Below are positions 1,497 to 22,281 of a stretch of DNA of 64,000 bases, in pieces. The notes below the pieces were generated by a model. The model worked only from the letters and a program-made list of their open reading frames with translations. It was not told the DNA's origin and searched no databases. The DNA comes from an uncultured Gammaproteobacteria bacterium (GTDB lineage Bacteria > Patescibacteriota > Patescibacteriia > Patescibacteriales > UBA12465): contig CAZXEE010000001.1 of the NCBI GenBank assembly GCA_964639785.1, positions 314,556 through 378,555 on the forward strand, written 5' to 3'. The translations under genes were made by a program, and so were the position numbers. Numbering within the stretch: position 1 is the stretch's first letter; each line of letters starts with the position of its first letter.

Positions 1497-1497
1497 T

Positions 1498-2646
1498 ATG
1501 AAAATTTTATTAGTGCATAATAATTATCAGTCTAAGTCTATCGGCGGTGAAGATGTCGTTTTTCAACATGAGTTTTCGGCTCTGGAAAAATGTTTAGGCA
1601 CTGGCAATGTTTTTAAATATGTAGTTTATAATGATGACATCAATATTTTTAAGCTTCTTTTTACAATTTGGTTTTCGCGGAAGCATTATAATAATATTTA
1701 TAAGTTGGTTTCTGAAAATAAGATTGATTTGGTCCATGTCCATAATTTTTACCCCCTTTTAACGCCTAGTGTTTTTAGGGCTGCGAAGAAAGCCGGAGCA
1801 AAAACTATCCAGACTTTGCATAATTATAGGTGGTGGTGTATTTCTGGAATATTTTATAGGAATAATTGTGGTATTTGTGAGCTTTGTGCTCATAAAAAAT
1901 TTCCTTATTTTGGTATTATTCATAAATGCTATCGAAATTCATTTTTGCAAAGTATTTTTACTGCCCTGGCTTTATTCTTTTATAAATTAACCAACCAGAT
2001 TAAGCATATTGATAAATTTTTTGTTCTAAGTGATTCTGAGAGAAAAAAAATTATTGAGTTAGGAATAAGTTCAGAGAAGATTATTTTTAAACCGAATTTT
2101 GTTGAGGTTGAAAGTGTCGTTCATGATGGCAAAAAGGATTATATTTATGTTGGAAAACTGGATGAAAGTAAGGGGGTTTTGGAGTTGTTGAAAACCTGGA
2201 AAAAATTAGATAAAAAATACGTTTTGAGATTAATAGGTGAGGGCGAACTAAGCAATAGATCTGATGCTTTAAAGTCTGATAATATAATTTTTTTGGGGAA
2301 ATTAGATAATAAAGATACTTTGAAAGAGATAGCTAAAGCAAGATATTTAATCTCACCATCTTTAATGTTTGAGACCTTTGGCTTAACCGTCCTTGAGGCT
2401 ATGTCCCTTGGTGTTCCAGTAATTGGATTTAATATCGGTACCAGATTAGAGTTTATAAAGGATGGGGTTAATGGTTTTATTTCTAGTGTTGAAAATTTAA
2501 AGAATATGATAGAGAAATCTTATGATTTTGATGATTATTCAAGATTGAGTGAAAATGCTAGAAAATTTGCTGATAACTATTCGAAAGATAAAATAATTAA
2601 AGATCAGATATCAATTTACCAAAAAATAATTAATAATAATTTATGA
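1498..2646 (+). CDS. Glycosyltransferase family 1
   Basis: ETFGLTVLEAMSLGVPVIGFNIGTRLEFIKDGVNGF GT1 motif. The start is 2 nt after the upstream GT stop. Confidence 0.8.
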   Translation: MKILLVHNNYQSKSIGGEDVVFQHEFSALEKCLGTGNVFKYVVYNDDINIFKLLFTIWFSRKHYNNIYKLVSENKIDLVHVHNFYPLLTPSVFRAAKKAGAKTIQTLHNYRWWCISGIFYRNNCGICELCAHKKFPYFGIIHKCYRNSFLQSIFTALALFFYKLTNQIKHIDKFFVLSDSERKKIIELGISSEKIIFKPNFVEVESVVHDGKKDYIYVGKLDESKGVLELLKTWKKLDKKYVLRLIGEGELSNRSDALKSDNIIFLGKLDNKDTLKEIAKARYLISPSLMFETFGLTVLEAMSLGVPVIGFNIGTRLEFIKDGVNGFISSVENLKNMIEKSYDFDDYSRLSENARKFADNYSKDKIIKDQISIYQKIINNNL

Positions 2647-3410
2647 GATTTTCTATAATAACTCCTAGCTATAACAGTGCTAAAACCATCTCTGATACTA
2701 TTGATAGCATCATTAACCAAACCCATCAGGATATTGAATATTTAGTAATAGATGGGGCTTCAAAGGATGAGACAGTAGCCATAGTTAGTGAATACCAGAA
2801 GAAATTTCCTATTAGATTGATTTCCGAAAGAGATGCTGGTATCTATGATGCTATGAATAAAGGGGTTAAGATGGCCACCGGTGATATTGTGGGAATATTA
2901 AATTCGGATGATTTCTATTATGATAATTCTGTTTTGCAAAAGATTAATGATGTCTTTGAAAATAATCCGGATATTGATGCTGTCTATGGTGATTTAGTCT
3001 ATGTCAATCAGGACGATATCACTAAGCAAACTCGGTATTGGAAGAGTGGGGAATATAACGAAAAAAAGATAAATAGCGGCTGGATTATTCCTCATCCAAC
3101 ATTTTTTGTAAGACGTGAAGTGTATGAAAGATCTAGTAAGATATTTGATACTTCTTTCTCCTTAGCTGCTGATTATGAATTTATTCTGCGTTCGTTAAAG
3201 GTAAAAAAGATTAAAGTTAAATATCTGCCAGAGATTATCGTTAAGATGAGAGCTGGTGGGGCGAGCGGTAGTAGCTTGAAACAACGGATTAAGGGTTGGA
3301 AAGAATTGCGTCGAGCTTGGACTGTTAATTCGCTTCCAGTTCCAGCCTTTTTTATTATTAGAAGAGTGGTGGGAAAGTTTAGTCAGTTTTTGTTGAGGCC
3401 TAAGGATTAA
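2643..3410 (+). CDS. Glycosyltransferase family 2
   Basis: N-terminal MRFSIITPSYNSAKTISDTIDSIINQTHQDIEYLVIDGASKD GT2 (DxD-type) signature. The ATGA overlaps the upstream gene. Confidence 0.8.
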   Translation: MRFSIITPSYNSAKTISDTIDSIINQTHQDIEYLVIDGASKDETVAIVSEYQKKFPIRLISERDAGIYDAMNKGVKMATGDIVGILNSDDFYYDNSVLQKINDVFENNPDIDAVYGDLVYVNQDDITKQTRYWKSGEYNEKKINSGWIIPHPTFFVRREVYERSSKIFDTSFSLAADYEFILRSLKVKKIKVKYLPEIIVKMRAGGASGSSLKQRIKGWKELRRAWTVNSLPVPAFFIIRRVVGKFSQFLLRPKD

Positions 3411-3421
3411 TAAAATTTATT

Positions 3422-3937
3422 ATGAAAGAATACCTAACGGAGAATAATAAAAAGGTCAGCCGGCAGCCTTTGAAGGCTTCTTGGATGGATATCAAGGATT
3501 ATATAACTGCCCACCAAGACTTGGTAATCTGCTGCCATGACGTCTTTATAAAGTATCAGGATGGCATATTATTAGTTAACCGGGATAATTATCCGGCCAA
3601 GAACACTTTCTGGCCTATCGGCGGCCGGATTGAGAGGGGATCTGATGCTATGGAATCTCTGAAAAATAAGGTTAAGAATGAATGCGGTTTGAAGATTAAG
3701 AACATCAAGTTTCTGGGAACGGCCAGGACATTATTCAAGGCTGATCCCTTCGGCCATGGCAAGGGAACCGATACTATGAATTTAGCTTATTCAGCCGAAG
3801 GCTATGGCAAGATCAAATTAGACAAGCTCCATAATAATCCGATGATTGTCACTCTAAAAGACTACAAGAAAGGCTTGGCAATTAAGCTCCATCCCTATGT
3901 CGATGATTTCTTGAAGCAGGCTTTCAAGCAGCGTTAA
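3422..3937 (+). CDS. Nudix hydrolase, GDP-mannose mannosyl hydrolase (Gmm/NudD)-like
   Basis: WPIGGRIERGSDAMESLKNKVKNECGL resembles the Gmm-type Nudix box (GGR[VI]...E...R...E.GL). It sits beside gmd/fcl. Confidence 0.5.
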   Translation: MKEYLTENNKKVSRQPLKASWMDIKDYITAHQDLVICCHDVFIKYQDGILLVNRDNYPAKNTFWPIGGRIERGSDAMESLKNKVKNECGLKIKNIKFLGTARTLFKADPFGHGKGTDTMNLAYSAEGYGKIKLDKLHNNPMIVTLKDYKKGLAIKLHPYVDDFLKQAFKQR

Positions 3938-3953
3938 AAAATTCTTTAGGTAA

Positions 3954-3990
3954 TAAAAAAACAGTTCTAATTTAGAACTGTTTTTTTGTT
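3954..3990. terminator. Bidirectional rho-independent terminator between convergent genes
   Basis: Hairpin acagttctaa-ttt-agaactgt flanked by an A-run upstream and a T-run downstream. Confidence 0.7.
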
Positions 3991-4011
3991 TGATTTATTC
4001 TTTAATTTTAT

Positions 4012-6746: not shown

Positions 6747-8120
6747 TTATCTCCCTTCGTGGGCCACGATGGTCTTGATAGTTTTTAATATAATAGTGAT
6801 GTCTAAGAATAATGATCGGTTCTTGATGTAGAAAAGGTCATGTTGCAATTTTTTGATAGTGTCAGCGACGGAAGCGGAATGATACTCGCCGGAGATTTGG
6901 TCCCAGCCGCTGATGCCTGGCTTGACTAAGGTACGGATGTCGAAGAAGGGAACGTTCTCTTTTAGTTCAGCGATAAACTCTGGCCTTTCCGGACGAGGTC
7001 CGATGAAGCTCATCTGTCCTTTGATGATGTTCAAGAGCTGAGGAATCTCATCAATCCTAGTCTTGCGCAATACTTGTCCAACACTGGTGATGCGCTTGTC
7101 GCCTTCGACAGTCAGGCCATAGTCATTGTTATCAGTCTTCATGGTTCGGAACTTGTACATCTTGAAAGGGATATTGTTCTGGCCCATACGGTACTGGGTG
7201 AAGAATATAGGTCCATGGCTATTGAGCTTGATGGCCAGGATAATCAGGGGCCAGAAGGGAGCTGAGAGGATCAAAAGTAATATGGCTAAAAAAAGATCGA
7301 AGCTCCTCTTGATGAACTCGAAGACCTTTTTGTCGGCTAGGTCCAGATTCTCCAAGAACCAGGATTGTCCGATGATCTCGAGCGGTACCCGGCCGGTGAT
7401 TTTTTCATAGAAATTGGGAAGGGTGGTATAGCTGATGCCGAGAGGCAGGCAGTTGAACAGGCGTTTCTTCAATTCCGGTGAATTGTTGACGTCCTTAGCC
7501 AGGATGATATTGGTAATCTTATATTTAGAGCTCAGCTCTTCTAAGCCGTCGCTTTCGTCGAAGACTTCAACTAGGTCCTTTATTTCCGGATCGATATCTT
7601 CGCCCTCGCTCAAGATGATGAATTTGATGTCATATCCCATATGGGGGCTGGCCTTGAAGTCTTTGATTAGCTCGGCCAAGTGAGGGTTGTAGCCGATGAC
7701 GCCGAGATTGTTCTTAGGCAGGCGATTCTTGAGGATATATGAGAAGAGGAAACGCCAGGAGATGAAAAGGGCTGAAAAGACGCCGGCAAAGATCAATAGG
7801 TTGGTTTTTGGGGAAATATTATTATATGGGAAGAGATAGAAGAAGATGATGGAAATGACCAGGGAAACGGCCAGGGTTTTGAGGTAATTCTCGACAAAAC
7901 GGCCCCGGTGAGCGAATTTCTTGAGGTCATATAGGCTGCCAATATAGAAGATTATGATCCAGATCAAGAAAATCAAGCTAAAAACGGCACTATTCTGTTC
8001 CCAGGAGCGGTTTTCCGGGTTCTTGAAATAGCGCAGATAGAGGGTTAGATAGAGGGCAAGATAGAAGATGGCAATATCCCCTAAAAGCAGGATAATTTGT
8101 TTTAATTTGGACTTTATCAT
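6747..8120 (-). CDS. Polyprenyl-phosphate glycosyl-1-phosphate transferase (WbaP/bacterial sugar transferase family)
   Basis: Multi-TM N-terminus with the C-terminal sugar-transferase domain ...[47 protein letters not shown]. Confidence 0.8.
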
Positions 8121-8162: not shown

Positions 8163-10235
8163 ATGCAGCCAAAAACTTATCTGGCCATTTTGAAATATGG
8201 CCTTTACGCGTCGTTCTTGAGCTTCTTTTTCATCTTCTCGAACCTGTTGTTCCCATACATCACTTCGAAACAGATCTCTTTCAATATCCTGATCGAGGTT
8301 TTGACCGTCTTCTGGGTGCTTCTGATCGCCACCTATCCGCAGTATCGGCCGAAGAAGAATTTCTTGACTTGGGGTATCCTGGTCTATTTCTTAGTTGTGG
8401 CCCTATCCTGTATCTTCGGAGTGGATTTTAACTTAAGCTTCTGGGGCAATGCGGAACGGATGCTGGGATTCTTCCATTTATTACACTTCTTATTATTCTA
8501 TCTGATCCTGATTACGGTTATGCGGAAAAAAGAGAACTGGGATCGCTTCTTTGATATCTCCATCGCTACCGCCGTCTTGATTACCGTCTATGGCTTGATG
8601 AAGGATTACCCGGCTTCCACTATCGGCAATGCCGCTTATGTCGCCGGCTTGATGATCTTCAATTTCTTTTTCGCTCTTTGGCGCCTTTTCTCTTGCCGGG
8701 ACTGGTGGCAGAGAAGCGTCTATATCGTAGCGGCCTTCTTGGTCTTGGTCGGTTTCTTCCAGGCTGACATTTCCGGAGCCCAAGCCGGATTGGTGGCTGG
8801 TTTAGGAGTCGCCGGTATCATTTTCTTCTTCTTACAGAAGGGAAAGAAGATGAAGATCGTCGGAGGCATCGTCTTGGCTTTATTGTTCTCAGCCTTAGTC
8901 CTCTTATTCGCCTATCGTTCCAATCCGGTTTTTGACAATACCAAGATCGGCAATATGTTACGCGCCTTCTCTTCGACTAACACTACCTGGAATACCCGTT
9001 TGCTTTCTTGGAATGCCGCTTATCTCGATTTCCATAACCATCCGATCTTGGGCGTCGGCCATGGCAATTATGCCCATATATTCGACAAGCATTTCACACC
9101 GAAATTCTATGAATACTCTCCGAGCGAAACTTACTTCGATCGGGCTCACAACAATATAGTAGAAATCGTTTCCACTTCTGGAGTCCTGGGTCTTTTGGCC
9201 TATTTGTCGATCTTCGTGGCTGCTTTCTATTACTTATTCAAGTCTTTCAAGCAGAAAAAGATCAATGCTTGGCAATTATCGGTCCTTTCCGGCCTAATCG
9301 TCGCTTATTTCGTCCAGAACTTGGCGGTCTTCGATTCCATGGTGACTTACGTCTCGCTCTTCGGCCTCTTAGGCTTCATCTATTACCGCTATCACCAATC
9401 TGAAATCGAGTCAGCCACTGACAAGAGATCGGCTTCCTTATCAGATGAGAAAGAATTAGGCTTATGGATAGCGCTTATCATCTTAGCCTTGGTTTTCGTT
9501 TTCCGCTTTAATATCCGCGGCTTCGATATGCTGAGCGGAACCATTGAAGGCTATCAATATGTGGCTAACGGCCAATTGGTGGCTGGTACCGAGATTTATC
9601 AGAAGACTTTCGCTAAAGAGGTCGGGTACAATCGTGATAGCCGCGCTTCTTTCATTAATCTCCTGACCGGAAATCCGAAGGCCCTCTTGTCTCTGCCAAC
9701 TGAAGATGCTAACAAAGTTTTGTCATATGCCGTTGAGTTAGCCGAGGCCAATGCCAATTACAATCCTGGCGACAGTTTGCTGGAAACCCAGCTGGCCAAG
9801 ATCGCTAATATCGCGGCTCGTTTCAACTTCAAAGATATCGACAAGTTCAATGAATATTCTGCTATCTCAGTTTCCGCTATCGATGCCGCCATTACAGCTA
9901 GCCCGGGCCGTTTCCCGTTGTATTATATCAAGTCCGACGTCCACATGACTCGAGGTGAGAAGGATGAAGCGGTGGCTGCTTTGAACAAGGCGATTGAGTT
10001 GAAGCCGGACTATGCCGAAGGCTATTGCAATCTGGCCAAGGTCTATTATTTCTTCAAAGACTTCGATCCAGCCTACAAGCAGGCTTGGACTTGTGCCAAG
10101 ATGGACAGTATCAGCTTGCTGGGTACCGGCAGCTTGGTTACGGATGCCGCCAAATATTACCGGGAGAAGGGTGATGCTGAGAGCGCCCAATATTTCGAGG
10201 ACTACTCGGCATCGTTGCAGAAGGTGGTGCAATAA
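8163..10235 (+). CDS. O-antigen ligase/polymerase-like (Wzy_C) membrane protein fused to a C-terminal TPR domain
   Basis: About 12 TM segments. RAHNNIVEIVSTSGVLGLLAY is a Wzy_C-like motif. The C-terminus carries TPR repeats (AALNKAIELKPDYAEGYCNLAKVYYF). Confidence 0.6.
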   Translation: MQPKTYLAILKYGLYASFLSFFFIFSNLLFPYITSKQISFNILIEVLTVFWVLLIATYPQYRPKKNFLTWGILVYFLVVALSCIFGVDFNLSFWGNAERMLGFFHLLHFLLFYLILITVMRKKENWDRFFDISIATAVLITVYGLMKDYPASTIGNAAYVAGLMIFNFFFALWRLFSCRDWWQRSVYIVAAFLVLVGFFQADISGAQAGLVAGLGVAGIIFFFLQKGKKMKIVGGIVLALLFSALVLLFAYRSNPVFDNTKIGNMLRAFSSTNTTWNTRLLSWNAAYLDFHNHPILGVGHGNYAHIFDKHFTPKFYEYSPSETYFDRAHNNIVEIVSTSGVLGLLAYLSIFVAAFYYLFKSFKQKKINAWQLSVLSGLIVAYFVQNLAVFDSMVTYVSLFGLLGFIYYRYHQSEIESATDKRSASLSDEKELGLWIALIILALVFVFRFNIRGFDMLSGTIEGYQYVANGQLVAGTEIYQKTFAKEVGYNRDSRASFINLLTGNPKALLSLPTEDANKVLSYAVELAEANANYNPGDSLLETQLAKIANIAARFNFKDIDKFNEYSAISVSAIDAAITASPGRFPLYYIKSDVHMTRGEKDEAVAALNKAIELKPDYAEGYCNLAKVYYFFKDFDPAYKQAWTCAKMDSISLLGTGSLVTDAAKYYREKGDAESAQYFEDYSASLQKVVQ

Positions 10236-10394: not shown

Positions 10395-10423
10395 TTGCAA
10401 ATTTTTGAAGGGTGTGTTATGAT
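10395..10423 (+). promoter_or_regulatory. Sigma70-like promoter TTGCAA-17-TGtTATGAT (extended -10) for the Fic/Doc gene
   Basis: Hexamers with a 17-nt spacer and TG at -15/-14. The same AGGGTGTTATGAT motif recurs at 24803-24814. Confidence 0.45.
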
Positions 10424-10453
10424 ATTTTTGTGATAAAAAATAAGTCCAAAAAG

Positions 10454-11683
10454 ATGACTGATAATAACAAACAATTAAGCCGATTATTCTCTCAGCCTTT
10501 CCTGAGTGCTTTTTTCGTGGATTTCGAGGCCTTGCCTGTCAAGGAGGATTTTTTGAAAAAAGCTGATGATATCCTGGCAAAATATGAGACTAGAGAAATA
10601 GACTGGCAATTAGAAAAATCATTGCGCCGGCATAACGACTTGTTGGTTTCTTTTGCAGTATCTAAGGCGGAAAATTCAGCTTTGACTCTGGCGGAAGCGG
10701 ATGAGGTTTACAAGTTGATCGAAGAACAGAAAGACTATGCTTTTTTGCATCGCAAGCTGAAGAAAGGGGAGAAGTTAACCCAGAAAGATCATGATCGTTT
10801 AGAGTATTTTAATATCGCCAAGACTTTTTGGGAATTGAATGAGACTGGAATCAAGATTCAGGACCTGACTCCGGAATTATTGACCGATTTGCATCGCCAG
10901 CTGACTGCCGGACTGGATGTCTTCTCTGATCATTTAGATAAATTCGAAACTTATCGTAGCGGCCATTTCAGGAATAACGATGAGACCAGGGTGACTAATT
11001 TCGTTCCGGCACCGCATCGGGAGATAGAGCCTAGTGTTAGGGAATTGATCAGTTGGATCAAACAGAATCCATCAGCTTTAAATGTCTTCATTTTCCATGC
11101 CGCTTTGTATGCCTTGCATCCTTTCAAGAACGGCAACAAGAGAGTATGCCGTATCTTGGAACATTTCCTTCTGCAGGATCTTGGTTACAACCAGAAGAAT
11201 CTCTATAGCCCGTCCTATTATTACCACAAGCACAAGGATAAGTATTACAAGAACTTGATCGAGGCTCTCTATAAGCGTAACCTGAATTATTTTGTCTCCT
11301 TCGCTTCTGAGGCTTTGTTCTTTTCCATTATCGGAGTAATCGTTGGCGTCTTGCAACGGAACAAGGCGGAATTTTTGGAAGCGAGCGGATTAGAAAAAAA
11401 TATCGCCAAAGTTTTGAAGCCTTTGGCAAAGTGCTCTGAAGTCCGGTTTGCCCGTTTTTATGCTTTATCTAAAAGGAAGGTAGCCCGCCAGACATTTGTT
11501 AACTATCTGGGCTTGGCGGTCGAGAGTGGAGTCTTGAAGAAAAGGGAACAGGGCCGGAATGTCTATTATTCTCTGGCCGGGAATTATCCGGAAGAAGCCT
11601 TGTTAGCTGATTTGCTGTCCCAGGCTCGGGAGAGATTCAATTATCTGCCGGAAGAGTTTGTCGGCTACGCGACGAAATTATAA
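10454..11683 (+). CDS. Fic/Doc family protein with a Doc-type active-site motif and a C-terminal winged HTH
   Basis: HPFKNGNKRVCR matches the Doc consensus HxFx(D/N)(A/G)NKR rather than the Fic HPFx(D/E)GNGR. The in-frame ATG at 10454 is downstream of the promoter. The track ORF began at a GTG at 10412 inside the -10 element. Confidence 0.7.
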   Translation: MTDNNKQLSRLFSQPFLSAFFVDFEALPVKEDFLKKADDILAKYETREIDWQLEKSLRRHNDLLVSFAVSKAENSALTLAEADEVYKLIEEQKDYAFLHRKLKKGEKLTQKDHDRLEYFNIAKTFWELNETGIKIQDLTPELLTDLHRQLTAGLDVFSDHLDKFETYRSGHFRNNDETRVTNFVPAPHREIEPSVRELISWIKQNPSALNVFIFHAALYALHPFKNGNKRVCRILEHFLLQDLGYNQKNLYSPSYYYHKHKDKYYKNLIEALYKRNLNYFVSFASEALFFSIIGVIVGVLQRNKAEFLEASGLEKNIAKVLKPLAKCSEVRFARFYALSKRKVARQTFVNYLGLAVESGVLKKREQGRNVYYSLAGNYPEEALLADLLSQARERFNYLPEEFVGYATKL

Positions 11684-11698
11684 TCAATGGTCAATTGA

Positions 11699-11727
11699 GA
11701 CCGCCCTTTGCCGGGCGGTTTTTTTGT
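11699..11727 (+). terminator. Rho-independent terminator
   Basis: gaccgccctttgccgggcggtttttttg. Confidence 0.8.
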
Positions 11728-11840: not shown

Positions 11841-12791
11841 ATGAAAAAAATAAAACAATTGGTTTTTCGGCTTTCCCGCTATAGGCTCTGGCTGATTATC
11901 GGTTCTAGTGCCTTGCTGGTTATCTTGGGCTTGGCCTACGGAATAATCTATGGCCGTCTCTGGTTGGCGTTGCCAGACGGAATCAAAGCCGATATCGCTA
12001 TCAACCGCTTGGGAGTCAGCAGCTACAATGATCTTGTTTGTCATGAGTCTTGTTTCTATGAACGTCAGGTATATAAGCAAGTGATCGCTGCTAATCTGGA
12101 GAAGGAAAAAATTGCAGCCAGGGTTGAGAGCTTGATTCTGGCCGAGGATAATAATCTGAGGTTTAGGCTGGAGCTGCTTGATGCTTTGTCATTTAAGGAT
12201 GGTTTGCGCCTGCCGGATTATTTGGGAAATTATCTGGCTAGCGGTGAAGAGGAGGCGGTTAAGGAAAAAATCAGAGAAGTCTTTGGATTGGATAGGGCTT
12301 CTAGCGTTGAGTTAATAGATCGCTTAAAAAATTCTTCGTCGACAGCCGAGCGGATTGATCTCTTAGATTCTTTGCGGGAGAAATCAGATTCATCTCTGGC
12401 TGGTTTTTATCTGGATCTTGTTATTAATGAGTCTGATTTGAAAATAAAGAATGGCGCTTTGTTGGCACTGAGTAATTTGGTGCCAAGTTCTGACTATGTT
12501 TCAGATGATTTTTTGTCCAAGATTCGGAGGACGATATTTGATCCGGCCACTAATCAATATTTGCGCAAGGAATTAATTCTTCTCTTAGGAGATTATCTGT
12601 CAATTCAAGAAAAGATAGTTAATCAGCTGCTGGTAGATATCTATTCGGATGAAGCAGTCATCGACAAGTTTAGCCGTTTGTTCGCGGCTGGAATATTGAA
12701 TCGCCTGAGTGCCAATAGTTATGCCGAACCGGAAATCAGCAGCAGTGAATGGCAAGCCTATCGGGATGGCAATAGTTTGTGGGGGAATTGA
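11841..12791 (+). CDS. Hypothetical membrane-anchored protein with an alpha-helical (HEAT/ARM-like) repeat region
   Basis: N-terminal signal anchor (LWLIIGSSALLVILGLAYGIIYG) followed by Leu-rich helical repeats. No recognisable catalytic motif. Confidence 0.4.
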   Translation: MKKIKQLVFRLSRYRLWLIIGSSALLVILGLAYGIIYGRLWLALPDGIKADIAINRLGVSSYNDLVCHESCFYERQVYKQVIAANLEKEKIAARVESLILAEDNNLRFRLELLDALSFKDGLRLPDYLGNYLASGEEEAVKEKIREVFGLDRASSVELIDRLKNSSSTAERIDLLDSLREKSDSSLAGFYLDLVINESDLKIKNGALLALSNLVPSSDYVSDDFLSKIRRTIFDPATNQYLRKELILLLGDYLSIQEKIVNQLLVDIYSDEAVIDKFSRLFAAGILNRLSANSYAEPEISSSEWQAYRDGNSLWGN

Positions 12792-12849
12792 TAGGGCGTT
12801 GGGATTGGCTTGAAGGCCATGATTGATTATAGAAAATAAGCCGTTATTT

Positions 12850-15800
12850 ATGGATAAAAAAATTAAATGGCTAGTCTGTTCTTTAGTATTTGTTTTCAGC
12901 TTGTTTATCGGTTTGAAGCCAGCTTCGGCTATGCCTCTAGGCACTATTCTGTATCGCACGTCTTCGAATAATAATGCTTATGGTTATAGTTCCAAGGATT
13001 TGTTAGTGGTCAATAAAGTCGGCTTAGTCACCAACTTGTATACCGGCCATACTGGAATCTATATCGGTAAGGAAAATGGAATTGATTATGTGGCCGAAGC
13101 TTTGCCGAGCGGATTAGTTAAGACACCGGCTAAGTATTTTTTGAATACGCGGGCAGGGGAGAAATTGATCGGAGCTAAGATCCCCAAAAATTTAACCGAA
13201 GAACAGCGGGAGAAGGTAATATCTCTGGCTCGTAATCTAACCGATGCCAAGATGAAATACGATTTTGATTTTAGGCACCAGAAGGGTTCGGAGAGCGGCC
13301 AATGGACCTGCGTTGGTTTTGTCGAGAAAATCTACGAGAGCGCCAACATCATCAATCCGAAAGATCTAGATGCTTTAGTCTATGATCAAAATGAATATGC
13401 CATCGATATCACTCCGGACGGATTTGATAATACCAGTGTCTATAATTCTAAGACCGGAGATGTCTTTTCGACGACCAAGGAATTTTCTAAGATTTCCCGT
13501 CGGCCTCGGATGCTGGTACCGGCTCCGGAAATTATCGGCTATGATGCCGGATTGGAGAAAGGCGATGACCGTTATTTCTTTATTCCGCACACCCAGTTCT
13601 TGCAACCGACCCTGGAAGATGTTCCGGTTGATATCGATTTGAGTAGCGATTTTAATGATGAGACAATCAGGGGCAAAGCACCGCAATTGGCTCTGATTTT
13701 CAAGTGGAGCTTGATCAACAATCCGAGCTCTACTTTACGTCAGGTATTGGCAGCGGCGAAAGACAAGATTAAATCTTTATTTAAAAGTGAACCAGCTCTA
13801 GCTGTTTCGGTGGTGGATAACAAGAAGGCGACAACTACTAAAAAGGCAACTACTGCCACCAAGGTTAAGACTACTAAAAAAACTACGACTACGAAGGCTA
13901 AAAAGGCTGCTACCGCTAAAAAGACTACGACGGCTAAAGCTAAAGTAACGACAGCTGCTAGCACGAAAAAGGCGGCAACTACCACAGCTAAAGTTGCCAA
14001 GAAAATTGTTGCCAATAAAGCTACTTCCAGTCCTAAAGTTGTGGTTAGTACTAAGAAGCCGGTGGTTGCTGATCAGAAAAAGATTGAACCGGAAGCGGAT
14101 AAGCCGACAGTTAAGCCGGTTGCTCCTAGCGTTGTCCCGGCTAACAATCCAGTGGTTAATAATTATCATACTACGGTGGTCAATAACCCTCCGGCTGAGA
14201 CCAAGAAGCTGATATTGATAGGAGAAGTAGGGACTGATTGGTTAGAGCTTTATAATCCTAACGAAGAAGCAATTGATCTTTCAGATGGCGCTTATCGCTT
14301 GGAAAAATCTAAGACGGCAGTTGATCCTGGAATCATGGTGCGGTTTGGCAATGAGAGCGACGGCCTCTATCCGGGCGGGGTGGAGATTCCGGCATCGGGT
14401 TCATATCTGGTAGTTTCCCAAGATGCCAGTGCGGAATTGAAGGCTAAGGCGGATGCAATCGTCAGTAATGATAATTTTTCTTGGGGTGAATCCGGTTATA
14501 CCATTTATCTGGGTGTTGGAGCTATCAGCAGTAATACTGATCCTGATATTATTGATTTTGTCGGTTTTGGCCCGGAAGCCAAATATTTTGAAGGTAGTGC
14601 TCCGGCCGGAGCTTTGGTTCCTAATTCTATTTTGGTCCGTAAAGCTAAGGCTGATTCGACTGTCGCTAGTTTGATGCCAGGCGGTGTCGATGAACTATTG
14701 GGTCATGCTTATGATACTAATCAGAACCAAAGCGATTTTGTCTTGTTGGATTTGAATCCGGTTGGAGAAAATAATAATAATGATAACACAGGGTCGGAAG
14801 ATGATAATTCAGCGACTTCAACTGATTCAGTGGCTAGCTCGACGCCGAAGATTGTGATCTCCCGAATTTATGCGACCGGTGATGATGATTATATTGATCT
14901 GTATAATGATAGTGATGAAGATTTTGATCTGACTCTAAATAATTATCGTTTGGAAAAGGCTAAGAGCGCGGCTGATCCAATGATTATGATGCGATTTGGC
15001 AATGAGAATGATGGTTCTTATCCGCGGGGAATGGTAATCAAAGCCCGATCGTATTATCGGATAGTCCGTGATGAGGCTAGTGCTGAAATTAAGGCTACGG
15101 CCCATGCCATCGCTTCCGGCAATAATTTTACTTTCGATGGCTCCGGTTACGCTTTATATTTAGGACAGGATAGTATCAGCTCGTCCGATGATGCCGATAT
15201 TATAGATTTGGTTGGTTTTGGTCTGGACGCTATTTATTATGAAGGTTCTGGCCCAGCTCCGGCGATAGTGGATGAAGGTTATCTGACTCGCAAGGCTAAC
15301 GCTAGCTCAACGATTGAGAGTTTGTCTCAGGGTGGATCAGAATATGCTCTAGGCGCTTCCTATGATAGTGACAATAATCGATCGGATTTCTTGTTGATTG
15401 GAGGGGAACCAGGATCATCAGAAATGGTTGGTGGTTATGATTCTCCGGGTTTGGCACATCTCTGGCATTTCAATGAATGTCGGGGTGAGGTAATAGAGGA
15501 TTCAGTTGGCAAGAGTGATTTTGCGGCTAAGTTTGATTGGCGGATAGGAAAATGGGGTTGTGCTTTTGAGCGGAAATTTCCCGAGGACAAACTACAAACT
15601 AGTTTTAGTGCGCTAAGCAGCAAGGGATTATCCATCGTTTTTAATTATCGCGGTTCTACTAATTGGGGCCGGACTTCTTTTGCCTTGTCCGGACCGGATG
15701 GCGGTGTCAGCGTTATCTTCGGTCCGCTTTTTGCTGAGTCTAGTGGCCTGCCGACTATGTTCCGGTCTGATAGTATCAAGTGGCCGAATGATGGAACCTG

Positions 15801-16671
15801 GCATCAAGGCGCCTTTGTTCTTAATAGCTCAGATGATTATTGGGAATTATATTTGGATGGCAAACAAGTTTATCGGGAATATTTTCAAGCGATATATTCG
15901 AAAGAGTTTACCGGACTGGAAATAAATACCGGAAACTATTTGGATGAAGTGGGGCTTTGGGGTCGAGCTTTGAGTGGAGAAGAAATTAATGGCATATTTG
16001 CCTCTCAGCTAGAATTGGCTCCGGTGAAGACCAGGGAGGCACAAATCGATCCAGTTGAAATCCATCATTGGAGTTTTAATGAAAGGGTTGGAATGGAAGC
16101 GGCCGATGATTATTCCAGTAGCAGCTTATTTATAGATCGGACTCAGTGGGTTAGGTTGGGCCATGAAGGCGCCGCTATTTCACATATTTATTCTGTTAAT
16201 AGAAAAATGTCGGTTAATCTGGCTCAAGAGATAAAGAGCGATGATCTGAGTATTGATTTTTGGTGGCGTAATCGCAGTTATTCTAGCGAGTCGCGAGGGA
16301 ATATCAGTTTGCTTGGCGATAATGATAAGCGGCTTTTCGGTTTGATATTCAGTCCTTACCGCCCGGGTTATTACATTAGCGGCAATTATGGCATGATCAG
16401 TGAAGGTCTAGGGTCAACTTTGCCACACGACAACTCTTGGCATCATTTGGTCCTAGTTTATGATTCTTATGAATATTCATTGAATTTCTATGTCGATGGC
16501 GAATTGAAATATAGCATTCCGCACCCTTGGATAGCTGATGAGGCTATCAAGAAGATAGAGATCTATAATGAACTTCGGGAATATGAATTAGATGATTTAA
16601 GTATTTGGCAGGGAGCTCTAAAGGCTTCCCAGGTTAAAGCTATTTACCAAAACGAAACAGGTGGTAATTAG
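12850..16671 (+). CDS. Giant secreted multidomain protein: signal peptide, permuted papain-like amidase (Peptidase_C92/YiiX, NlpC/P60 superfamily), Thr/Lys/Ala-rich linker, 2 lamin-tail domains (LTD), 2 LamG/ConA-like lectin domains
   Basis: Signal peptide MDKKIKWLVCSLVFVFSLFIGLKPASA. A His-then-Cys permuted papain core (YTGHTGIYIG ... QWTCVGFVEKIY). A TTTKKATTATK linker. LTD signatures at ILIGEVGTDWLELYNPNEE and IVISRIYATGDDDYIDLYNDSDE. LamG_3-like blocks at WHQGAFVLNSSDDYWELYLDGKQVY and WHHLVLVYDSYEYSLNFYVDGEL. The upstream TTG at 12823 is probably not the start. Confidence 0.75.
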   Translation: MDKKIKWLVCSLVFVFSLFIGLKPASAMPLGTILYRTSSNNNAYGYSSKDLLVVNKVGLVTNLYTGHTGIYIGKENGIDYVAEALPSGLVKTPAKYFLNTRAGEKLIGAKIPKNLTEEQREKVISLARNLTDAKMKYDFDFRHQKGSESGQWTCVGFVEKIYESANIINPKDLDALVYDQNEYAIDITPDGFDNTSVYNSKTGDVFSTTKEFSKISRRPRMLVPAPEIIGYDAGLEKGDDRYFFIPHTQFLQPTLEDVPVDIDLSSDFNDETIRGKAPQLALIFKWSLINNPSSTLRQVLAAAKDKIKSLFKSEPALAVSVVDNKKATTTKKATTATKVKTTKKTTTTKAKKAATAKKTTTAKAKVTTAASTKKAATTTAKVAKKIVANKATSSPKVVVSTKKPVVADQKKIEPEADKPTVKPVAPSVVPANNPVVNNYHTTVVNNPPAETKKLILIGEVGTDWLELYNPNEEAIDLSDGAYRLEKSKTAVDPGIMVRFGNESDGLYPGGVEIPASGSYLVVSQDASAELKAKADAIVSNDNFSWGESGYTIYLGVGAISSNTDPDIIDFVGFGPEAKYFEGSAPAGALVPNSILVRKAKADSTVASLMPGGVDELLGHAYDTNQNQSDFVLLDLNPVGENNNNDNTGSEDDNSATSTDSVASSTPKIVISRIYATGDDDYIDLYNDSDEDFDLTLNNYRLEKAKSAADPMIMMRFGNENDGSYPRGMVIKARSYYRIVRDEASAEIKATAHAIASGNNFTFDGSGYALYLGQDSISSSDDADIIDLVGFGLDAIYYEGSGPAPAIVDEGYLTRKANASSTIESLSQGGSEYALGASYDSDNNRSDFLLIGGEPGSSEMVGGYDSPGLAHLWHFNECRGEVIEDSVGKSDFAAKFDWRIGKWGCAFERKFPEDKLQTSFSALSSKGLSIVFNYRGSTNWGRTSFALSGPDGGVSVIFGPLFAESSGLPTMFRSDSIKWPNDGTWHQGAFVLNSSDDYWELYLDGKQVYREYFQAIYSKEFTGLEINTGNYLDEVGLWGRALSGEEINGIFASQLELAPVKTREAQIDPVEIHHWSFNERVGMEAADDYSSSSLFIDRTQWVRLGHEGAAISHIYSVNRKMSVNLAQEIKSDDLSIDFWWRNRSYSSESRGNISLLGDNDKRLFGLIFSPYRPGYYISGNYGMISEGLGSTLPHDNSWHHLVLVYDSYEYSLNFYVDGELKYSIPHPWIADEAIKKIEIYNELREYELDDLSIWQGALKASQVKAIYQNETGGN
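13810..14055 (+). repeat. Coding low-complexity tandem repeat (ACT/ACG/AAA/GCT-rich) encoding a (K/A/T)n linker
   Basis: Reiterated act-act-aaa-aag-gc units that translate to KKATTTKKATTATKVKTTKKTTTTKAKKAATAKKTTTAKAK... Confidence 0.7.
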
Positions 16672-16692
16672 TTTTCCGTTTGCTAGATAATA

Positions 16693-16724
16693 AAATAACA
16701 GGCTTTTAAAGGCCTGTTATTTTA
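16693..16724. terminator. Bidirectional terminator between convergent genes
   Basis: aataacaggcttttaaaggcctgttatttt. Confidence 0.8.
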
Positions 16725-16746
16725 TTATTTGATATCTATTCTTATT

Positions 16747-17715: not shown

Positions 17716-18624
17716 ATGGCGAAAAATGATCTGAATAAAGAGCTGGATCTGAACAGATATCAGGATTTAGGCGGTTTTACTACCAAAAAATTGAATTTAG
17801 GGCTGTGGATCGTATCTCATAGGCGTCAATTCGTATTGGGAGTTACCGGAACCCTGATTGGTATTTCGGCTATCTTCTATGGTTATTCGATTTATAATTA
17901 TGTTGATTATCTGTATTTCGGCGGTAAGGCTGAGAGGGAAGCGATAGAAAACCTGGCTAATACTTCGGCTATCGATGAAGCCCAAAGGATCAAGAACGCA
18001 GCTAAAGAATTAGAGAAATCTAATCCTCGCGTCTTTTCTAATAATGGCAAGTATGATTTCTTGGCCCAAGTCAAGAATCCGAATACTAATTTTTTCGCTG
18101 ATCTCAATTATTGCTTTACCGATGGAGCCACGGAATTAGCTTGCGGTTCGACTTTTATCCTGCCGGATGAGACTAAGTATGTTACGATCTTTTCGCAGGA
18201 ATTGAAATTCAAGCCAGTTAACATCTCTGTAGTGATCAAGAATGTCAGCTGGAGGCGTTTAGACCTGCATAAGTATCCGGATTGGAAGACCTATGCCGCT
18301 ACTCATTTGAATTTTGCCGTTGAGAATGCTTCCTTCAAGACTTCGGAGGCTAGCGGATTATCGGAAAAAATCGGTTTGGATATTTTGGAATTCGATATCA
18401 CCAATAAGACAGCCTATAATTATTGGGAGGTGCCGGTTAATATCATCGTTTCAGCTAGCGGTAATCCGGTGGCTATCAATCATTATTCCTTGACTGAGTT
18501 CGTTTCCGGTGCTAAGAAATCAGTTCGTCTGTCTTGGCCGGATTCTATACCGAAGCCTGACCAGATTTCTGTCATTCCTAACTTGAATATTTCTGATGAT
18601 AATATATTCATGAAATATCAGTAA
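17716..18624 (+). CDS. Hypothetical membrane-anchored (type II) protein
   Basis: A single N-terminal TM (LGLWIVSHRRQFVLGVTGTLIGISAIFYGY) followed by a soluble domain with no known motif. A TGcTATAAT promoter element sits at about 17680-17688. Confidence 0.4.
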   Translation: MAKNDLNKELDLNRYQDLGGFTTKKLNLGLWIVSHRRQFVLGVTGTLIGISAIFYGYSIYNYVDYLYFGGKAEREAIENLANTSAIDEAQRIKNAAKELEKSNPRVFSNNGKYDFLAQVKNPNTNFFADLNYCFTDGATELACGSTFILPDETKYVTIFSQELKFKPVNISVVIKNVSWRRLDLHKYPDWKTYAATHLNFAVENASFKTSEASGLSEKIGLDILEFDITNKTAYNYWEVPVNIIVSASGNPVAINHYSLTEFVSGAKKSVRLSWPDSIPKPDQISVIPNLNISDDNIFMKYQ

Positions 18625-20988: not shown

Positions 20989-22281
20989 ATGAAAAATCTT
21001 GAATCATGCTTTTCTTTTAATCGTCCTGATTCCAATCAAGAAGAGGACTCTCCGATAAAACCGGGAGAGGTTTTTGATGCTTCTAAGGAGTTATTGGAAA
21101 TAAAGAAAAGCCACGGAGCTGAAGGTCTGGAGCAATTAGCGCTTTTCAAGGAAAAATTGAAGTATCAGAAGGAAGGCTTAGCTATGATTGAAGATAAGCT
21201 GATGGACTATTTACATAATAATTCTGATTTTTCTTTGCCGGATATCAGGGACTTAATAGCTTCAGACCTAGATAAATATGGTTTTGGCCAGGATTTCCGT
21301 GAAAGCATGTTGGATTTTTCCAAGAATTTATTTAACCGTTCTAAGAATATCAAAAAAGTCGTGTCAGAATGCTTGGATGAGGGTGGTAATCTAGATAATG
21401 CTAAGCTTTTCGAAAGATTGTTTTTCCGTCCGCCTTTGGGCGATCTTAAGGTGGAAGTTGATAATATCAGCATTTATGTCCGTTTGAACAATGATGATGA
21501 CTTTGCTTATATAGCTCGTGGCGCTTATAAAAAGAAGCGAGCCATTAATGATGTTGATCGGGAAGTTGCCCAGTCAACTGGCGGATTGGCGCTCAGCGAT
21601 TATCCTAGCGCTAAATTAAGAGGGCTGATCTTGGTGGAGTGTCCGGATTATTATGAAAACGAAAATGTCCATCAGGAAACCAAGCTGCATGAACAGCAGC
21701 ATGCTTTTAATTTTCTTTTGAAAAAATTCGAGTTCTCTGATTATGAACTGGGGTTGAAGAAATTAACCGCCTTTAATGAGTCTAATGATGAAGAATTGGA
21801 TGAGGACGAGAAGGGTAATAATTCAATCATGTTCTTGATCAATAATCCAAGAATTGAGGCAGCCATTAAAGATGAGATTACCGCTTATTTAAAGGGCCGA
21901 ACCGACACGAAAGAAATCAGCAATGCCTTGTTGTCGCCGGACACTATCTATGATTTTGGGTCTGGGTATAATTTGCCGGATATTACTGATAGCGACGGTT
22001 CTCTGAGCTATAAATACATGAAGTTGGTAGAGCAGGGTCTTATTGCTTTTGCTAAGCTGCAAGAAGAAGGCTATCCTTATGAAGCAGTCCATGCTGTCTT
22101 GTTTTCTGAACCTTTGGCCTTTTGGTTGAAGGCGGCCCAGAGGATCGATGGAGAAAAGATCAGTCCGGAAAAATTTAAAGAATTGGAGGAAAAATATATT
22201 GCGCCTCACATTCTGGAAAATATGATTAATACTAAAAAGAGTGAGATGGATGAGGTGATCGACACGTCAGAAGAAGCTTAG
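20989..22281 (+). CDS. Hypothetical protein (430 aa) with an HExxH motif (putative zincin-like); acidic
   Basis: LHEQQHAFNF carries H-E-x-x-H. A TGcTATAAT element lies at about 20954-20962. It has its own terminator. Confidence 0.45.
   Translation: MKNLESCFSFNRPDSNQEEDSPIKPGEVFDASKELLEIKKSHGAEGLEQLALFKEKLKYQKEGLAMIEDKLMDYLHNNSDFSLPDIRDLIASDLDKYGFGQDFRESMLDFSKNLFNRSKNIKKVVSECLDEGGNLDNAKLFERLFFRPPLGDLKVEVDNISIYVRLNNDDDFAYIARGAYKKKRAINDVDREVAQSTGGLALSDYPSAKLRGLILVECPDYYENENVHQETKLHEQQHAFNFLLKKFEFSDYELGLKKLTAFNESNDEELDEDEKGNNSIMFLINNPRIEAAIKDEITAYLKGRTDTKEISNALLSPDTIYDFGSGYNLPDITDSDGSLSYKYMKLVEQGLIAFAKLQEEGYPYEAVHAVLFSEPLAFWLKAAQRIDGEKISPEKFKELEEKYIAPHILENMINTKKSEMDEVIDTSEEA

Follow-up and report, generated by a model that had tools for sequence, protein, structure and literature searches.

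Genes and features at the locus

The window (the whole stretch of 64 kb of DNA that was analysed) contains a gene for a secreted multidomain protein of 1273 amino acids, which lies directly behind a gene for a membrane-anchored protein of 316 amino acids (up316) and among genes for glycan assembly. The main features are listed below by position in the window, with residue numbers (aa) referring to the 1273-residue protein unless another protein is named.

6747..8120, minus strand: Bac_transf, a polyprenyl-phosphate glycosyl-1-phosphate transferase, which starts the assembly of a lipid-linked glycan
8163..10235, plus strand: Wzy_C-TPR neighbour, a polytopic protein of the O-antigen ligase/polymerase/O-OTase family with C-terminal TPR
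11697..11722, plus strand: strong intrinsic terminator 3′ of the Fic gene
11841..12791, plus strand: up316, 316 aa, with an N-terminal transmembrane anchor (about aa 14-44 of up316) and an extracytoplasmic HEAT/ARM-like alpha-solenoid
12850..16671, plus strand: coding sequence of the 1273-residue protein, with ATG start and stop codon TAG at 16669-16671
12850..12930, plus strand: predicted Sec-type signal peptide, aa 1-27, with n-region MDKKIK, a hydrophobic core and an A-S-A/M site
12931..13746, plus strand: catalytic head, aa 28-299, a YiiX-type permuted NlpC/P60 core with a beta-rich extension and a long exit helix
13039-13392, plus strand: Pfam C92 match (PF05708), aa 64-181
13048-13050, 13096-13098, 13258-13260 and 13309-13311, plus strand: predicted catalytic tetrad His67, Glu83, Tyr137 and Cys154, in that order
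13747..14214, plus strand: linker 1, aa 300-455, a low-complexity stalk (K 22%, T 18%, A 17%, V 13%)
14215..14754, plus strand: lamin-tail domain 1 (LTD1), aa 456-635, Pfam LTD, 52.6% identical to LTD2
14755..14865, plus strand: linker 2, aa 636-672, rich in Ser, Thr, Asn and Asp and carrying the motif ATS[ST]
14866..15399, plus strand: lamin-tail domain 2 (LTD2), aa 673-850, Pfam LTD, 38.7 bits when scanned singly
15454..16044, plus strand: LamG/concanavalin-A-like domain 1 (LamG1), aa 869-1065, Laminin_G_3, with invariant Cys877 and Cys904
16045..16668, plus strand: LamG/concanavalin-A-like domain 2 (LamG2), aa 1066-1273, Laminin_G_3, 43.0 bits when scanned singly
16684-16731, no strand assigned: probable bidirectional terminator, a long AT-rich hairpin with a GC core and a 20-bp stem

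The plus-strand frame is open from a TTG codon (12823..16671, 1282 aa), but ATG 12850 is the likely start because a homologue 98% identical to the 1273-residue protein (P0001) and most other relatives match that length and N-terminus. The range given in a sequence-only reading of this DNA begins at 11841, which is the start of the upstream gene, and that reading had called the product giant, a generous word for 1273 residues. Its uninterrupted reading frame is real: the gene is intact, and a gene-prediction artefact is ruled out by an intact, 98%-identical copy in an independent sample that differs at 78 synonymous and 21 non-synonymous codons. The membrane-anchored helical-repeat protein that it placed ahead of the gene is up316, which has a transmembrane anchor and is all-helical, and the terminator that it placed behind the gene corresponds to the hairpin at 16684-16731, between the gene and the convergent DeoC gene. 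In this genome the strong terminator after the Fic gene sets the genes of up316 and the 1273-residue protein apart as a transcription unit of their own. No paralogue of the 1273-residue protein is present in the window, and Rfam and tRNA scans of the entire 64 kb gave no matches.

The sole hydrophobic segment of the protein is aa 4-30; no further transmembrane segment or C-terminal anchor was found when the whole protein was scanned. This segment and the A-S-A/M site support the earlier proposal of secretion, with the Sec pathway as the predicted route. Conservation in homologues reaches at least 90% at A27 and M28, and the conserved head starts at M28. With the signal peptide cleaved, the mature protein, a predicted enzyme, would open directly with the head and an intact His/Glu/Tyr/Cys centre. 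Neither an LPXTG-like sorting signal with hydrophobic tail nor a lipobox is present: the C-terminus reads ...YQNETGGN, and no Cys follows the signal peptide.

The catalytic head and the binding modules

When the N-terminal 330 residues were scanned alone, Peptidase_C92 (PF05708) scored 38.9 bits against a cut-off of 27 (E 1.2e-9); the family was not reported in a Pfam scan of the full-length protein, and it is precomputed for ∼60% of homologues. His67 (in GHTGIY) lies ahead of Cys154 (in WTCVGF), which is the permuted order, and both are invariant in 47 homologues. Glu83 and Tyr137, also invariant among homologues, align with the YiiX segments ‘fEa’ and ‘YDFSF’, in which their counterparts are Glu64 and Tyr115 (numbering of PMC3142127). 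Profile score and residue order therefore bear out the permuted-papain C92 head of the sequence-only reading, and the motifs it quoted are present along the protein (GHTGIYIG, then WTCVGF, then the ELYN/DLYN and WHxxxxV...YxDG blocks).

A test of the head for the YiiX/BcPPNE fold was positive, at a marginal sequence identity of 16-22%, and the head belongs with Escherichia coli YiiX (PDB 2if6) and Bacillus cereus BcPPNE (PDB 3kw0), the YaeF/YiiX-like permuted NlpC/P60 proteins of PF05708. These two are single-domain proteins of ∼180-200 aa, whereas the 1273-residue protein adds an extension of ∼110 aa, a stalk, two LTDs and two LamG domains. The extension (aa ∼185-295) is beta-rich, conserved and specific to the family, and no structural match to it was found. 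Against PDB sequences, a single-sequence search with the head gave a chance match alone (IolS, E 0.2) and the full-length family profile found only a LamG-like arabinanase module (5hon, matched in the LamG2 region), but YiiX was reached with a head-only profile. A single-sequence search of 1.84 billion representatives returned 130 relatives, nearly all of them large Patescibacteria proteins.

Several better-known enzyme classes were considered for the head. It scored 21-24.6 bits on the YebB equivalog model (NCBIfam NF008547; cut-off 227) and by sequence is a remote relative of YebB, not an orthologue. The marks of a canonical NlpC/P60 peptidoglycan hydrolase of the P60-like or AcmB/LytN-like kind (Cys before His, a PF00877-type profile, a close fold) were not found in it, nor were those of an LRAT/PLAAT (H-RAS-like suppressor) acyltransferase (an LRAT-family profile, an NCEHF-type motif at the Cys).

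Published work on the permuted branch points to lipids. The S1 tunnel of YiiX holds a fatty acid, and the S1 pockets are hydrophobic in all three structures (PMC3142127); Tox-Act1 and TseH act as phospholipases, and lipid specificity is said to arise from the permutation (PMC12994826). In Staphylococcus aureus, lipoproteins are N-acylated by the LnsA/LnsB system, in which LnsA, a secreted permuted enzyme, takes the sn-1 acyl chain from phosphatidylglycerol and requires a membrane partner (PMC13559823). Because the characterised permuted NlpC/P60 enzymes carry out acyl chemistry, we infer that the head would do so too. To our knowledge, YiiX and BcPPNE have no proven activity of their own. An earlier report described TseH as hydrolysing the cell wall, so that action of a permuted enzyme on wall peptides is conceivable.

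Linker 1 has a net charge of +26 in this protein and is acidic in some relatives; across homologues it is 123-199 aa long, 18% identical and rich overall in Ser, Ala, Lys and Thr, and it forms a disordered stalk, with AF2 pLDDT below 50 from aa 314. Described earlier as a K/A/T repeat, it is a low-complexity segment with no true repeat (TRF: 2.9 copies of an 18-bp unit, 73% match). In the whole protein, LTD (PF00932) scored 58.5 bits against a cut-off of 34.3 and Laminin_G_3 (PF13385) 56-60 bits against 27.6, each over two stretches; scanned singly, LTD1 (26.9 bits) and LamG1 (23.5 bits) fall under the cut-off. LTD1 matches LTD2 with E 6e-55, and LamG1 matches LamG2 at 25% identity (E 1e-9), which by sequence makes each two a clear paralogue pair. 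These scores and the paralogy uphold the two LTDs and two LamG domains named earlier, and the general idea of an extracellular enzyme with binding modules holds.

LTDs have been reported mainly with membrane-associated hydrolases or oligosaccharide-binding domains, and it has been suggested that they direct proteins to membranes (PMC6085458). LTD proteins of the ExeM nuclease type likewise fuse an LTD to an extracellular hydrolase with a signal peptide in front (PMC6085458), but their catalytic domain is different and LTDs have no established role, so that the comparison gives little mechanistic information. Nothing specific was found in the literature on lamin-tail/LamG proteins in Patescibacteria.

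The head is the most conserved part of the protein (mean identity 59%), and between two strains it differs by 28 synonymous and 1 non-synonymous changes, counts that indicate very strong purifying selection. LamG1 is the most variable folded domain (mean identity 33%; 7 synonymous and 8 non-synonymous changes between two strains). The distal LamG modules evolve fastest and are replaced in remote relatives by other lectin or Ig modules. The earlier idea of an adhesin keeps some support for this reason, and a lectin-like end that evolves rapidly and exchanges its modules would also be in keeping with a role in recognising foreign surfaces.

This pattern bears on the possibility of host-directed lipid harvesting, in which the LamG domains and LTDs would bind the host surface or membrane and the head would strip or transfer acyl chains of host phospholipids, a reading that we think unlikely though worth weighing. 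A phospholipase A or transacylase supplying a bacterium unable to make its own fatty acids is a proposal of the same low probability. In its favour, the gene is conserved throughout the lineage and its head is under strong purifying selection, as suits an enzyme essential for nutrition; the distal lectin-like modules are variable and exchangeable, the LTDs may target membranes as proposed for others (PMC6085458), and the permuted branch is documented as lipid-directed (PMC3142127, PMC12994826, PMC13559823). CPR bacteria are described as being without membrane-lipid synthesis, with an elusive lipid source and enriched lysolipids (PMC7242380). However, the sequence carries no sign of contact with another cell, and lipid harvesting does not predict the fixed linkage of the gene to the organism's own glycan-assembly genes and to a partner in the producer's membrane, with which it would be compatible if the protein were merely glycosylated. 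There is a rather low chance that the protein and up316 form a lipid-acquisition device of a lipid-auxotrophic CPR lineage, brought onto a host membrane or glycocalyx by the LTD/LamG tail and moving host acyl chains into the symbiont envelope; if true, this would account for the lysolipid enrichment in CPR bacteria as well as for the elusive origin of their membrane lipids.

Gene order in Candidatus Falkowbacteria

The gene is lineage-wide and syntenic in Candidatus Falkowbacteria, where at least 80 species-level genomes have it in the same place, and a phage or mobile origin was rejected because of this fixed chromosomal synteny. The usual order across 82 related loci is Wzy_C-TPR, up316, the 1273-residue protein, Bac_transf and two GT4 genes, and it holds between loci with only 35-45% protein identity (counts 69/77, 48/64 and 59/67, the second for Wzy_C-TPR upstream on the same strand and the third for Bac_transf directly downstream, as in most relatives). 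In the window, the Wzy_C-TPR protein matches Pfam Wzy_C (58 bits) and TPR_11 (39 bits), and Bac_transf scores 204.6 bits in Pfam and 363 bits on NCBIfam TIGR03025 (cut-off 295.55). Also nearby are two GT4 genes, a GT2 gene, a GDP-mannose dehydratase and a fucose-synthase-like gene; further neighbours are the Fic, DeoC and FtsW/RodA genes. As judged from gene order, the synteny shows coupling to a glycan pathway, within which it does not tell acceptor, binder and modifier roles apart.

PMC2943079 describes the predicted O-OTases WsaB, WsfB, PglL and PilO of S-layer and pilin glycosylation as carrying Wzy_C, WsfB and PglL as having a C-terminal TPR, and the initiating enzyme WsaP as a polyprenyl-phosphate Gal-1-phosphate transferase. 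The Bac_transf of the locus is the same type of enzyme as WsaP, and the Wzy_C-TPR neighbour resembles WsfB and PglL in combining Wzy_C with a C-terminal TPR. As in those glycosylation loci, it adjoins Bac_transf and GT4 genes and the gene of a large secreted protein with Ser/Thr-rich low-complexity segments. The target gene adjoins the glycan cluster in S-layer and pilin O-glycosylation systems; unlike S-layer proteins and pilins, the putative target here bears an enzyme head. No O-OTase-specific model (e.g. PglL_A) matched the Wzy_C-TPR protein, which could instead be a wall-polymer polymerase or ligase; the Wzy_C domain is common to ligases and polymerases. A literature search on O-antigen ligase and glycosylation in Patescibacteria turned up nothing specific.

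The sequence-only reading had seen the architecture expected of a surface effector or adhesin that remodels another cell's envelope; on that model the head would be a peptidoglycan amidase or endopeptidase opening the other cell's wall, which we regard as distinctly improbable. Tox-Act1 and TseH are T6SS polymorphic conflict effectors with immunity genes and a secretion-system context, whereas the gene studied here has one copy in the window, a fixed position, high conservation and a product with a predicted Sec route of export. We found neither an adjacent immunity gene nor a secretion-system marker among the neighbours in the window, and of the marks of a conflict effector or polymorphic toxin (immunity gene, trafficking domain, variable presence, multiple copies) none was found. 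The gene instead keeps company with Wzy_C-TPR, a membrane partner and lipid-linked glycan genes in the at least 80 species-level genomes, and its head evolves under the constraint described above. An effector that remodels another cell's envelope is therefore on balance disfavoured.

It is also conceivable, although very improbable, that the protein serves chiefly as a building element of the glycocalyx, in a fibril or in association with an S-layer. In that case its Cys/His head would act once, in a self-processing or transpeptidase-like manner, to fix the protein to wall or glycan, an arrangement for which we see an equally small chance. Like the S-layer glycoproteins described in PMC2943079, the protein is large, acidic and secreted, has a Ser/Thr-rich stalk and adjoins an O-OTase-like gene; a covalent-anchor motif of known type is absent, and in at least 19 loci the far side of Wzy_C-TPR encodes another secreted protein, which is ∼1200 aa long, rich in Ser and Thr and poor in Cys. 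But a most conserved head with a complete tetrad and a conserved extension is more typical of a working enzyme, and papain-like attachment is without precedent in the YiiX branch. Since conservation is highest in the catalytic head, an S-layer protein proper was not adopted as the main reading.

A proposed surface enzyme of the organism's own envelope

The best reading, with substrate and topology inferred, is an acyl hydrolase or transferase that is retained at the surface and linked to the organism's own glycoconjugate system. We see an about even chance that the protein is a Sec-exported, non-covalently held surface enzyme that forms part of the organism's own envelope machinery. Because it lies in a surface-sugar assembly locus, it looks like a component of its own envelope and not a weapon. 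The head would form a thioester acyl-enzyme and hydrolyse or transfer a fatty-acyl group of a membrane lipid, lipoprotein or lipid-linked intermediate, and would not cut peptidoglycan. One point against this own-envelope reading is that homologues differ in the charge of linker 1.

From adjacency and topology alone we infer that the up316 solenoid, in which the motif C67-H-E-x-C71 is near-invariant, may dock the protein on the outer face of the membrane, by analogy with the need of LnsA for LnsB. LnsA resembles the head in being a secreted permuted NlpC/P60 protein with a cleaved signal peptide that acts at the outer face of the membrane, and its His/Cys dyad, essential Tyr and required membrane partner (PMC13559823) offer a working analogy for the head together with up316, Wzy_C-TPR or both. 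In this comparison, made by description and not by sequence, LnsA differs in its size (189 aa), in being described as LRAT-like and in having neither a lectin-like tail nor a glycan locus, and its partner is a polytopic CPBP protein whereas up316 is a single-pass solenoid.

That a lineage with tiny genomes keeps a fixed gene of 3.8 kb signals an important envelope function. The permuted NlpC/P60 class is only now being recognised as lipid-directed, and a call of C92/NlpC-P60 should not be equated with a cell-wall amidase in annotation. If the head acts on surface lipids, the gene would be a concrete, clonable candidate for how CPR bacteria obtain or remodel membrane lipids that they cannot make. 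Protein O-glycosylation and glycan-anchored surface enzymes are barely characterised in CPR bacteria, and the locus also points to one or the other there.

The link to the glycan could take two forms. The linkers are rich in Ser, Thr and Ala family-wide, and the ATS[ST] motif, which occurs in many repeats in homologues, is ∼10 times commoner in the family than in the remaining proteins encoded at these loci; the linkers are possibly O-glycosylated by a PglL/WsfB-like Wzy_C-TPR enzyme. Alternatively, the LTD/LamG cassette may keep the enzyme in the organism's own glycocalyx by binding the glycan that the adjacent genes produce. The cassette is tied to the locus in another Patescibacteria genome as well, since the slot downstream of Wzy_C-TPR there holds a small transmembrane protein and a secreted protein with a different N-terminus, whose LTD-LamG-LamG cassette is homologous to that of the 1273-residue protein.

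Gene boundaries and domain architecture

ORF calling placed two genes on one strand in the interval 11841-16671, the span given for the giant secreted protein in the sequence-only reading. The secreted-protein gene, its preceding gene and its dedicated terminator are all present, although position 11841 opens the separate upstream gene and the terminator is common to a convergent DeoC gene. The features concerned are:

10412-11683, + strand: Fic/DOC-domain gene between the Wzy_C-TPR gene (8163-10235) and up316, with its own strong terminator
11697-11722: strong intrinsic terminator, closing the Fic gene and preceding up316
11841-12791, + strand: up316, first of the two genes, encoding a membrane-anchored HEAT/ARM-like solenoid of 316 aa
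12850 (ATG) to 16671, + strand: gene for the secreted multidomain protein, 1273 aa
16684-16731: hairpin with a 20-bp stem, 3′ of the secreted-protein gene and shared with DeoC

The larger gene has an open frame running from a TTG at 12823. Its start is most probably the ATG at 12850, because the family N-terminus aligns from there and a homologue with 98% identity, sampled independently, is exactly 1273 aa long. This second strain differs from the window by synonymous change in 78 codons and by non-synonymous change in 21; therefore the gene is real and of the expressed type, and a chance ORF is ruled out.

The domain calls, originally made from motifs, were upheld by Pfam, which found two lamin-tail domains (LTDs; 58.5 bits versus a cut-off of 34.3) and two Laminin_G_3 domains (LamG; 56-60 bits versus 27.6), with the weaker copy of each falling below cut-off when scanned singly. 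Both pairs are clear paralogues (LTD1 and LTD2, 52.6% identity, E 6e-55; LamG1 and LamG2, 25% identity, E 1e-9). For Peptidase_C92 (PF05708), the full-length scan gave no hit, and a scan confined to the first 330 residues gave a match at aa 64-181 with 38.9 bits (cut-off 27, E 1.2e-9). The supposed K/A/T repeat linker (linker 1, aa 300-455) is a low-complexity segment rich in K/T/A/V with no genuine repeat. The protein begins with a typical Sec signal, in which MDKKIK precedes a hydrophobic core and an A-S-A/M junction; the rest of the protein contains no other hydrophobic segment, and a C-terminal anchor was not found. The Cys877/Cys904 pair in LamG1 is invariant, which fits an extracytoplasmic protein.

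The catalytic head and its likely substrate class

His67, Glu83, Tyr137 and Cys154 are invariant both in an alignment of 47 full-length homologues and in 41 heads (aa 28-299 in the window protein) drawn from genomic loci. When a profile of these 41 heads was compared with PDB sequences, the top match was YiiX (2if6), and the four residues fell onto its H/E/Y/C tetrad (His49/Glu64/Tyr115/Cys128; PMC3142127). Conservation extends past the Pfam core to about aa 295, through a family-specific, beta-rich extension of ∼110 aa in which many residues are invariant, D-I-T-P-D-G-F-D among them; no structural match was found for this extension. The D-I-T-P-D-G-F-D motif (aa 186-193; window 13405-13428) opens the extension and resembles a calcium-binding loop; the deposited YiiX structure was labelled a metalloprotein, and its re-refinement included two calcium ions. 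The head subfamily is narrow: only 130 of 1.84 billion representative proteins matched at E ≤0.001, and nearly all of them are 1000-1700 aa long and carry the head immediately after the signal peptide.

Permuted NlpC/P60 enzymes form a branch that differs from wall hydrolases. All three solved structures have hydrophobic S1 pockets, and the YiiX S1 tunnel holds a fatty acid (PMC3142127). Tox-Act1 is a phospholipase, TseH, long taken for an endopeptidase, has phospholipase activity, and the authors attribute lipid specificity to the permutation (PMC12994826). LnsA, a secreted permuted enzyme that requires a membrane partner, transfers the sn-1 acyl chain of phosphatidylglycerol to lipoproteins (PMC13559823). 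The description of the head as cell-wall amidase-like had come from the superfamily name and not from this branch; a fatty-acyl hydrolase or transferase is the better inference, and the peptidoglycan-cutting effector proposed earlier seems improbable.

Conserved gene order and a possible link to glycan assembly

Full-length homologues are numerous (35-68% identity, 1070-1390 aa); those with a named source all come from Patescibacteria metagenome-assembled genomes, and their NCBI names are domain-based only. A scan of one genome per species yielded 149 loci encoding relatives, 80 of which were retained and are labelled largely Candidatus Falkowbacteria or Patescibacteria group. Many loci in which the genes are arranged in the same Patescibacteria-type order (L009, L011, L014, L046, L072 and others) come from MAGs labelled ‘uncultured Gammaproteobacteria’, ‘Planctomycetota’ or ‘Bacillota’, which are probably placeholders or wrong taxonomy.

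To assess synteny, we compared the window proteins with every ORF of 82 non-redundant loci. An up316 homologue lies directly upstream in 69 of 77 loci with sufficient flank (median gap 14 bp), and in 48 of 64 a Wzy_C-TPR gene lies upstream in the same orientation. A polyprenyl-phosphate sugar transferase gene (Bac_transf) directly follows in 59 of 67, succeeded by two GT4 genes where annotated; in the window's subclade it is instead divergent and upstream of Wzy_C-TPR (in the window, 6747-8120, − strand). Genes for two GT4 proteins, a GT2, a NUDIX protein, a GDP-fucose-synthase-like protein, GDP-mannose 4,6-dehydratase and Bac_transf lie within 8 kb in the window. Because gene order is kept across such divergence, the comparison argues for functional coupling of the secreted protein to a polyprenyl-phosphate-linked glycan pathway.

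The Fic insertion is limited to the window's lineage (also L001 and L085), ∼80 other loci having no gene there; in L007, a homologue of Fic is encoded downstream on the opposite strand. Positions 1-4000, encoding the GT4, GT4, GT2 and NUDIX proteins, have 31-34% G+C compared with 42-47% in the remaining window, and look like an exchangeable part of the glycan cluster, possibly of lateral origin. Most loci have a ∼480-bp non-coding gap between the secreted-protein gene and the downstream Bac_transf (e.g. L002:11874-12354, L004:11835-12322). Two window proteins, at 17716-18624 (302 aa) and 20989-22281 (430 aa), belong to no Pfam or NCBIfam family; the former has an apparent N-terminal hydrophobic segment, and within the window's subclade its gene keeps its synteny with DeoC and an FtsW/RodA gene. 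No tRNA, rRNA or Rfam family reached gathering score within positions 1-64000.

In S-layer and pilin O-glycosylation systems, acceptor genes adjoin the clusters. The linkers of the secreted-protein family are Ser/Thr/Ala-rich throughout, and ATS[ST] is ∼10 times commoner in this family than in the other proteins that these loci encode, often forming tandem ATST(D/E)E units within linker 2 (aa 636-672). According to PMC2943079, predicted O-oligosaccharyltransferases (O-OTases) of both systems carry Wzy_C, WsfB and PglL have a C-terminal TPR as well, and the pathways begin with a Bac_transf-type enzyme. The neighbour in our locus likewise combines Wzy_C with TPR and is accompanied by a Bac_transf-type initiating enzyme; it is possible that it is a polymerase or ligase, since no O-OTase-specific model matched it. 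The secreted protein may be either an O-glycosylation acceptor or a binder of the neighbouring genes' glycan, its lectin-like cassette retaining the enzyme at the surface. That it is mainly a structural glycoprotein, with the head as a single-use attachment domain, strikes us as very improbable.

In at least 19 of the secreted-protein loci, the gene immediately preceding Wzy_C-TPR encodes a member of a second large secreted family (∼1170-1235 aa, 23-24% Ser/Thr, 0-2 Cys). The family also occurs in Patescibacteria without the C92-headed protein, there often following genes for an ECF sigma factor and a DUF5667 protein; it is absent from the 64-kb window and has no Pfam match. It is an S-layer-like candidate. 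Members share ...ASAGDLIKM... after the signal peptide. Examples are:

L002:20-3709, L004:569-4084, L086:2067-5762, L087:1272-4844 and L088:1943-5572

Module exchange and proposed mode of action

Mean identity to the window protein falls from 59% in the head to 51-52% in the LTDs, 33-37% in the LamGs and 18-26% in the linkers. Between two strains, the head has 28 synonymous changes and 1 non-synonymous change, and LamG1 has 7 and 8, respectively (small numbers). Remoter head-bearing proteins retain the signal peptide, head and 2-4 LTDs, with the distal part replaced by DUF2341, Ig-like, fn3 or other concanavalin-like modules. A Patescibacteria genome without a C92 protein (L088:11346-15932) encodes, downstream of Wzy_C-TPR, a 161-aa TM protein and a 1361-aa secreted protein whose N-terminal half is unrelated (Big_13 only, no C92) and whose LTD-LamG-LamG cassette is 33% identical to aa 668-1267 of the window protein. 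The arrangement suggests that heads have been exchanged while the tail was conserved. Because remote relatives keep the head with LTDs and L088 keeps the cassette at the Wzy_C-TPR slot, two pairings are conserved, one of the head and LTDs and the other of the LTD-LamG cassette and the Wzy_C locus. Tandem pairs of Wzy_C-TPR genes occur in other Patescibacteria loci (L086:5879-11241, L087:6693-11229, L088:6528-11229).

The account we prefer, with roughly even confidence, is that of a decorated, surface-held YiiX-type enzyme acting on the cell's own envelope. The protein would be exported by Sec, cleaved after Ala27 and retained at the membrane's outer face or glycocalyx by the co-transcribed up316 solenoid and/or the LTD-LamG cassette; its stalks are probably decorated, and catalysis by the head would proceed via a thioester at Cys154, with a fatty-acyl group as substrate. 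The analysis establishes the architecture, catalytic residues, fold, conservation and gene order; the substrate class, the way the protein docks, its glycosylation and the owner of the membrane it acts on are inferred. Host-directed lipid scavenging is attractive given that CPR bacteria (Patescibacteria) are reported in PMC7242380 to be lysolipid-enriched and unable to make lipids, and we consider it an unlikely alternative to action on the cell's own envelope. The domains are all known and relatives are already labelled by domain in databases; our literature search found no paper on the architecture or locus. What is new would best be described as an enzyme of the YiiX type that is extended, specific to one clade and joined to LTD/LamG modules inside a conserved envelope-glycan locus. 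In a radiation that is uncultured and lipid-auxotrophic, the gene is a candidate for roles in lipid handling and surface glycosylation that can be cloned.

The up316 family evolves fast (median 27% identity) and keeps a C-H-E-x-C motif a short way beyond its membrane helix (aa 67-71; window 12039-12053); of 74 homologues, at least 95% have both Cys. The motif may bind a metal or form a disulfide. A C-terminal Trp (aa 304) is also kept.
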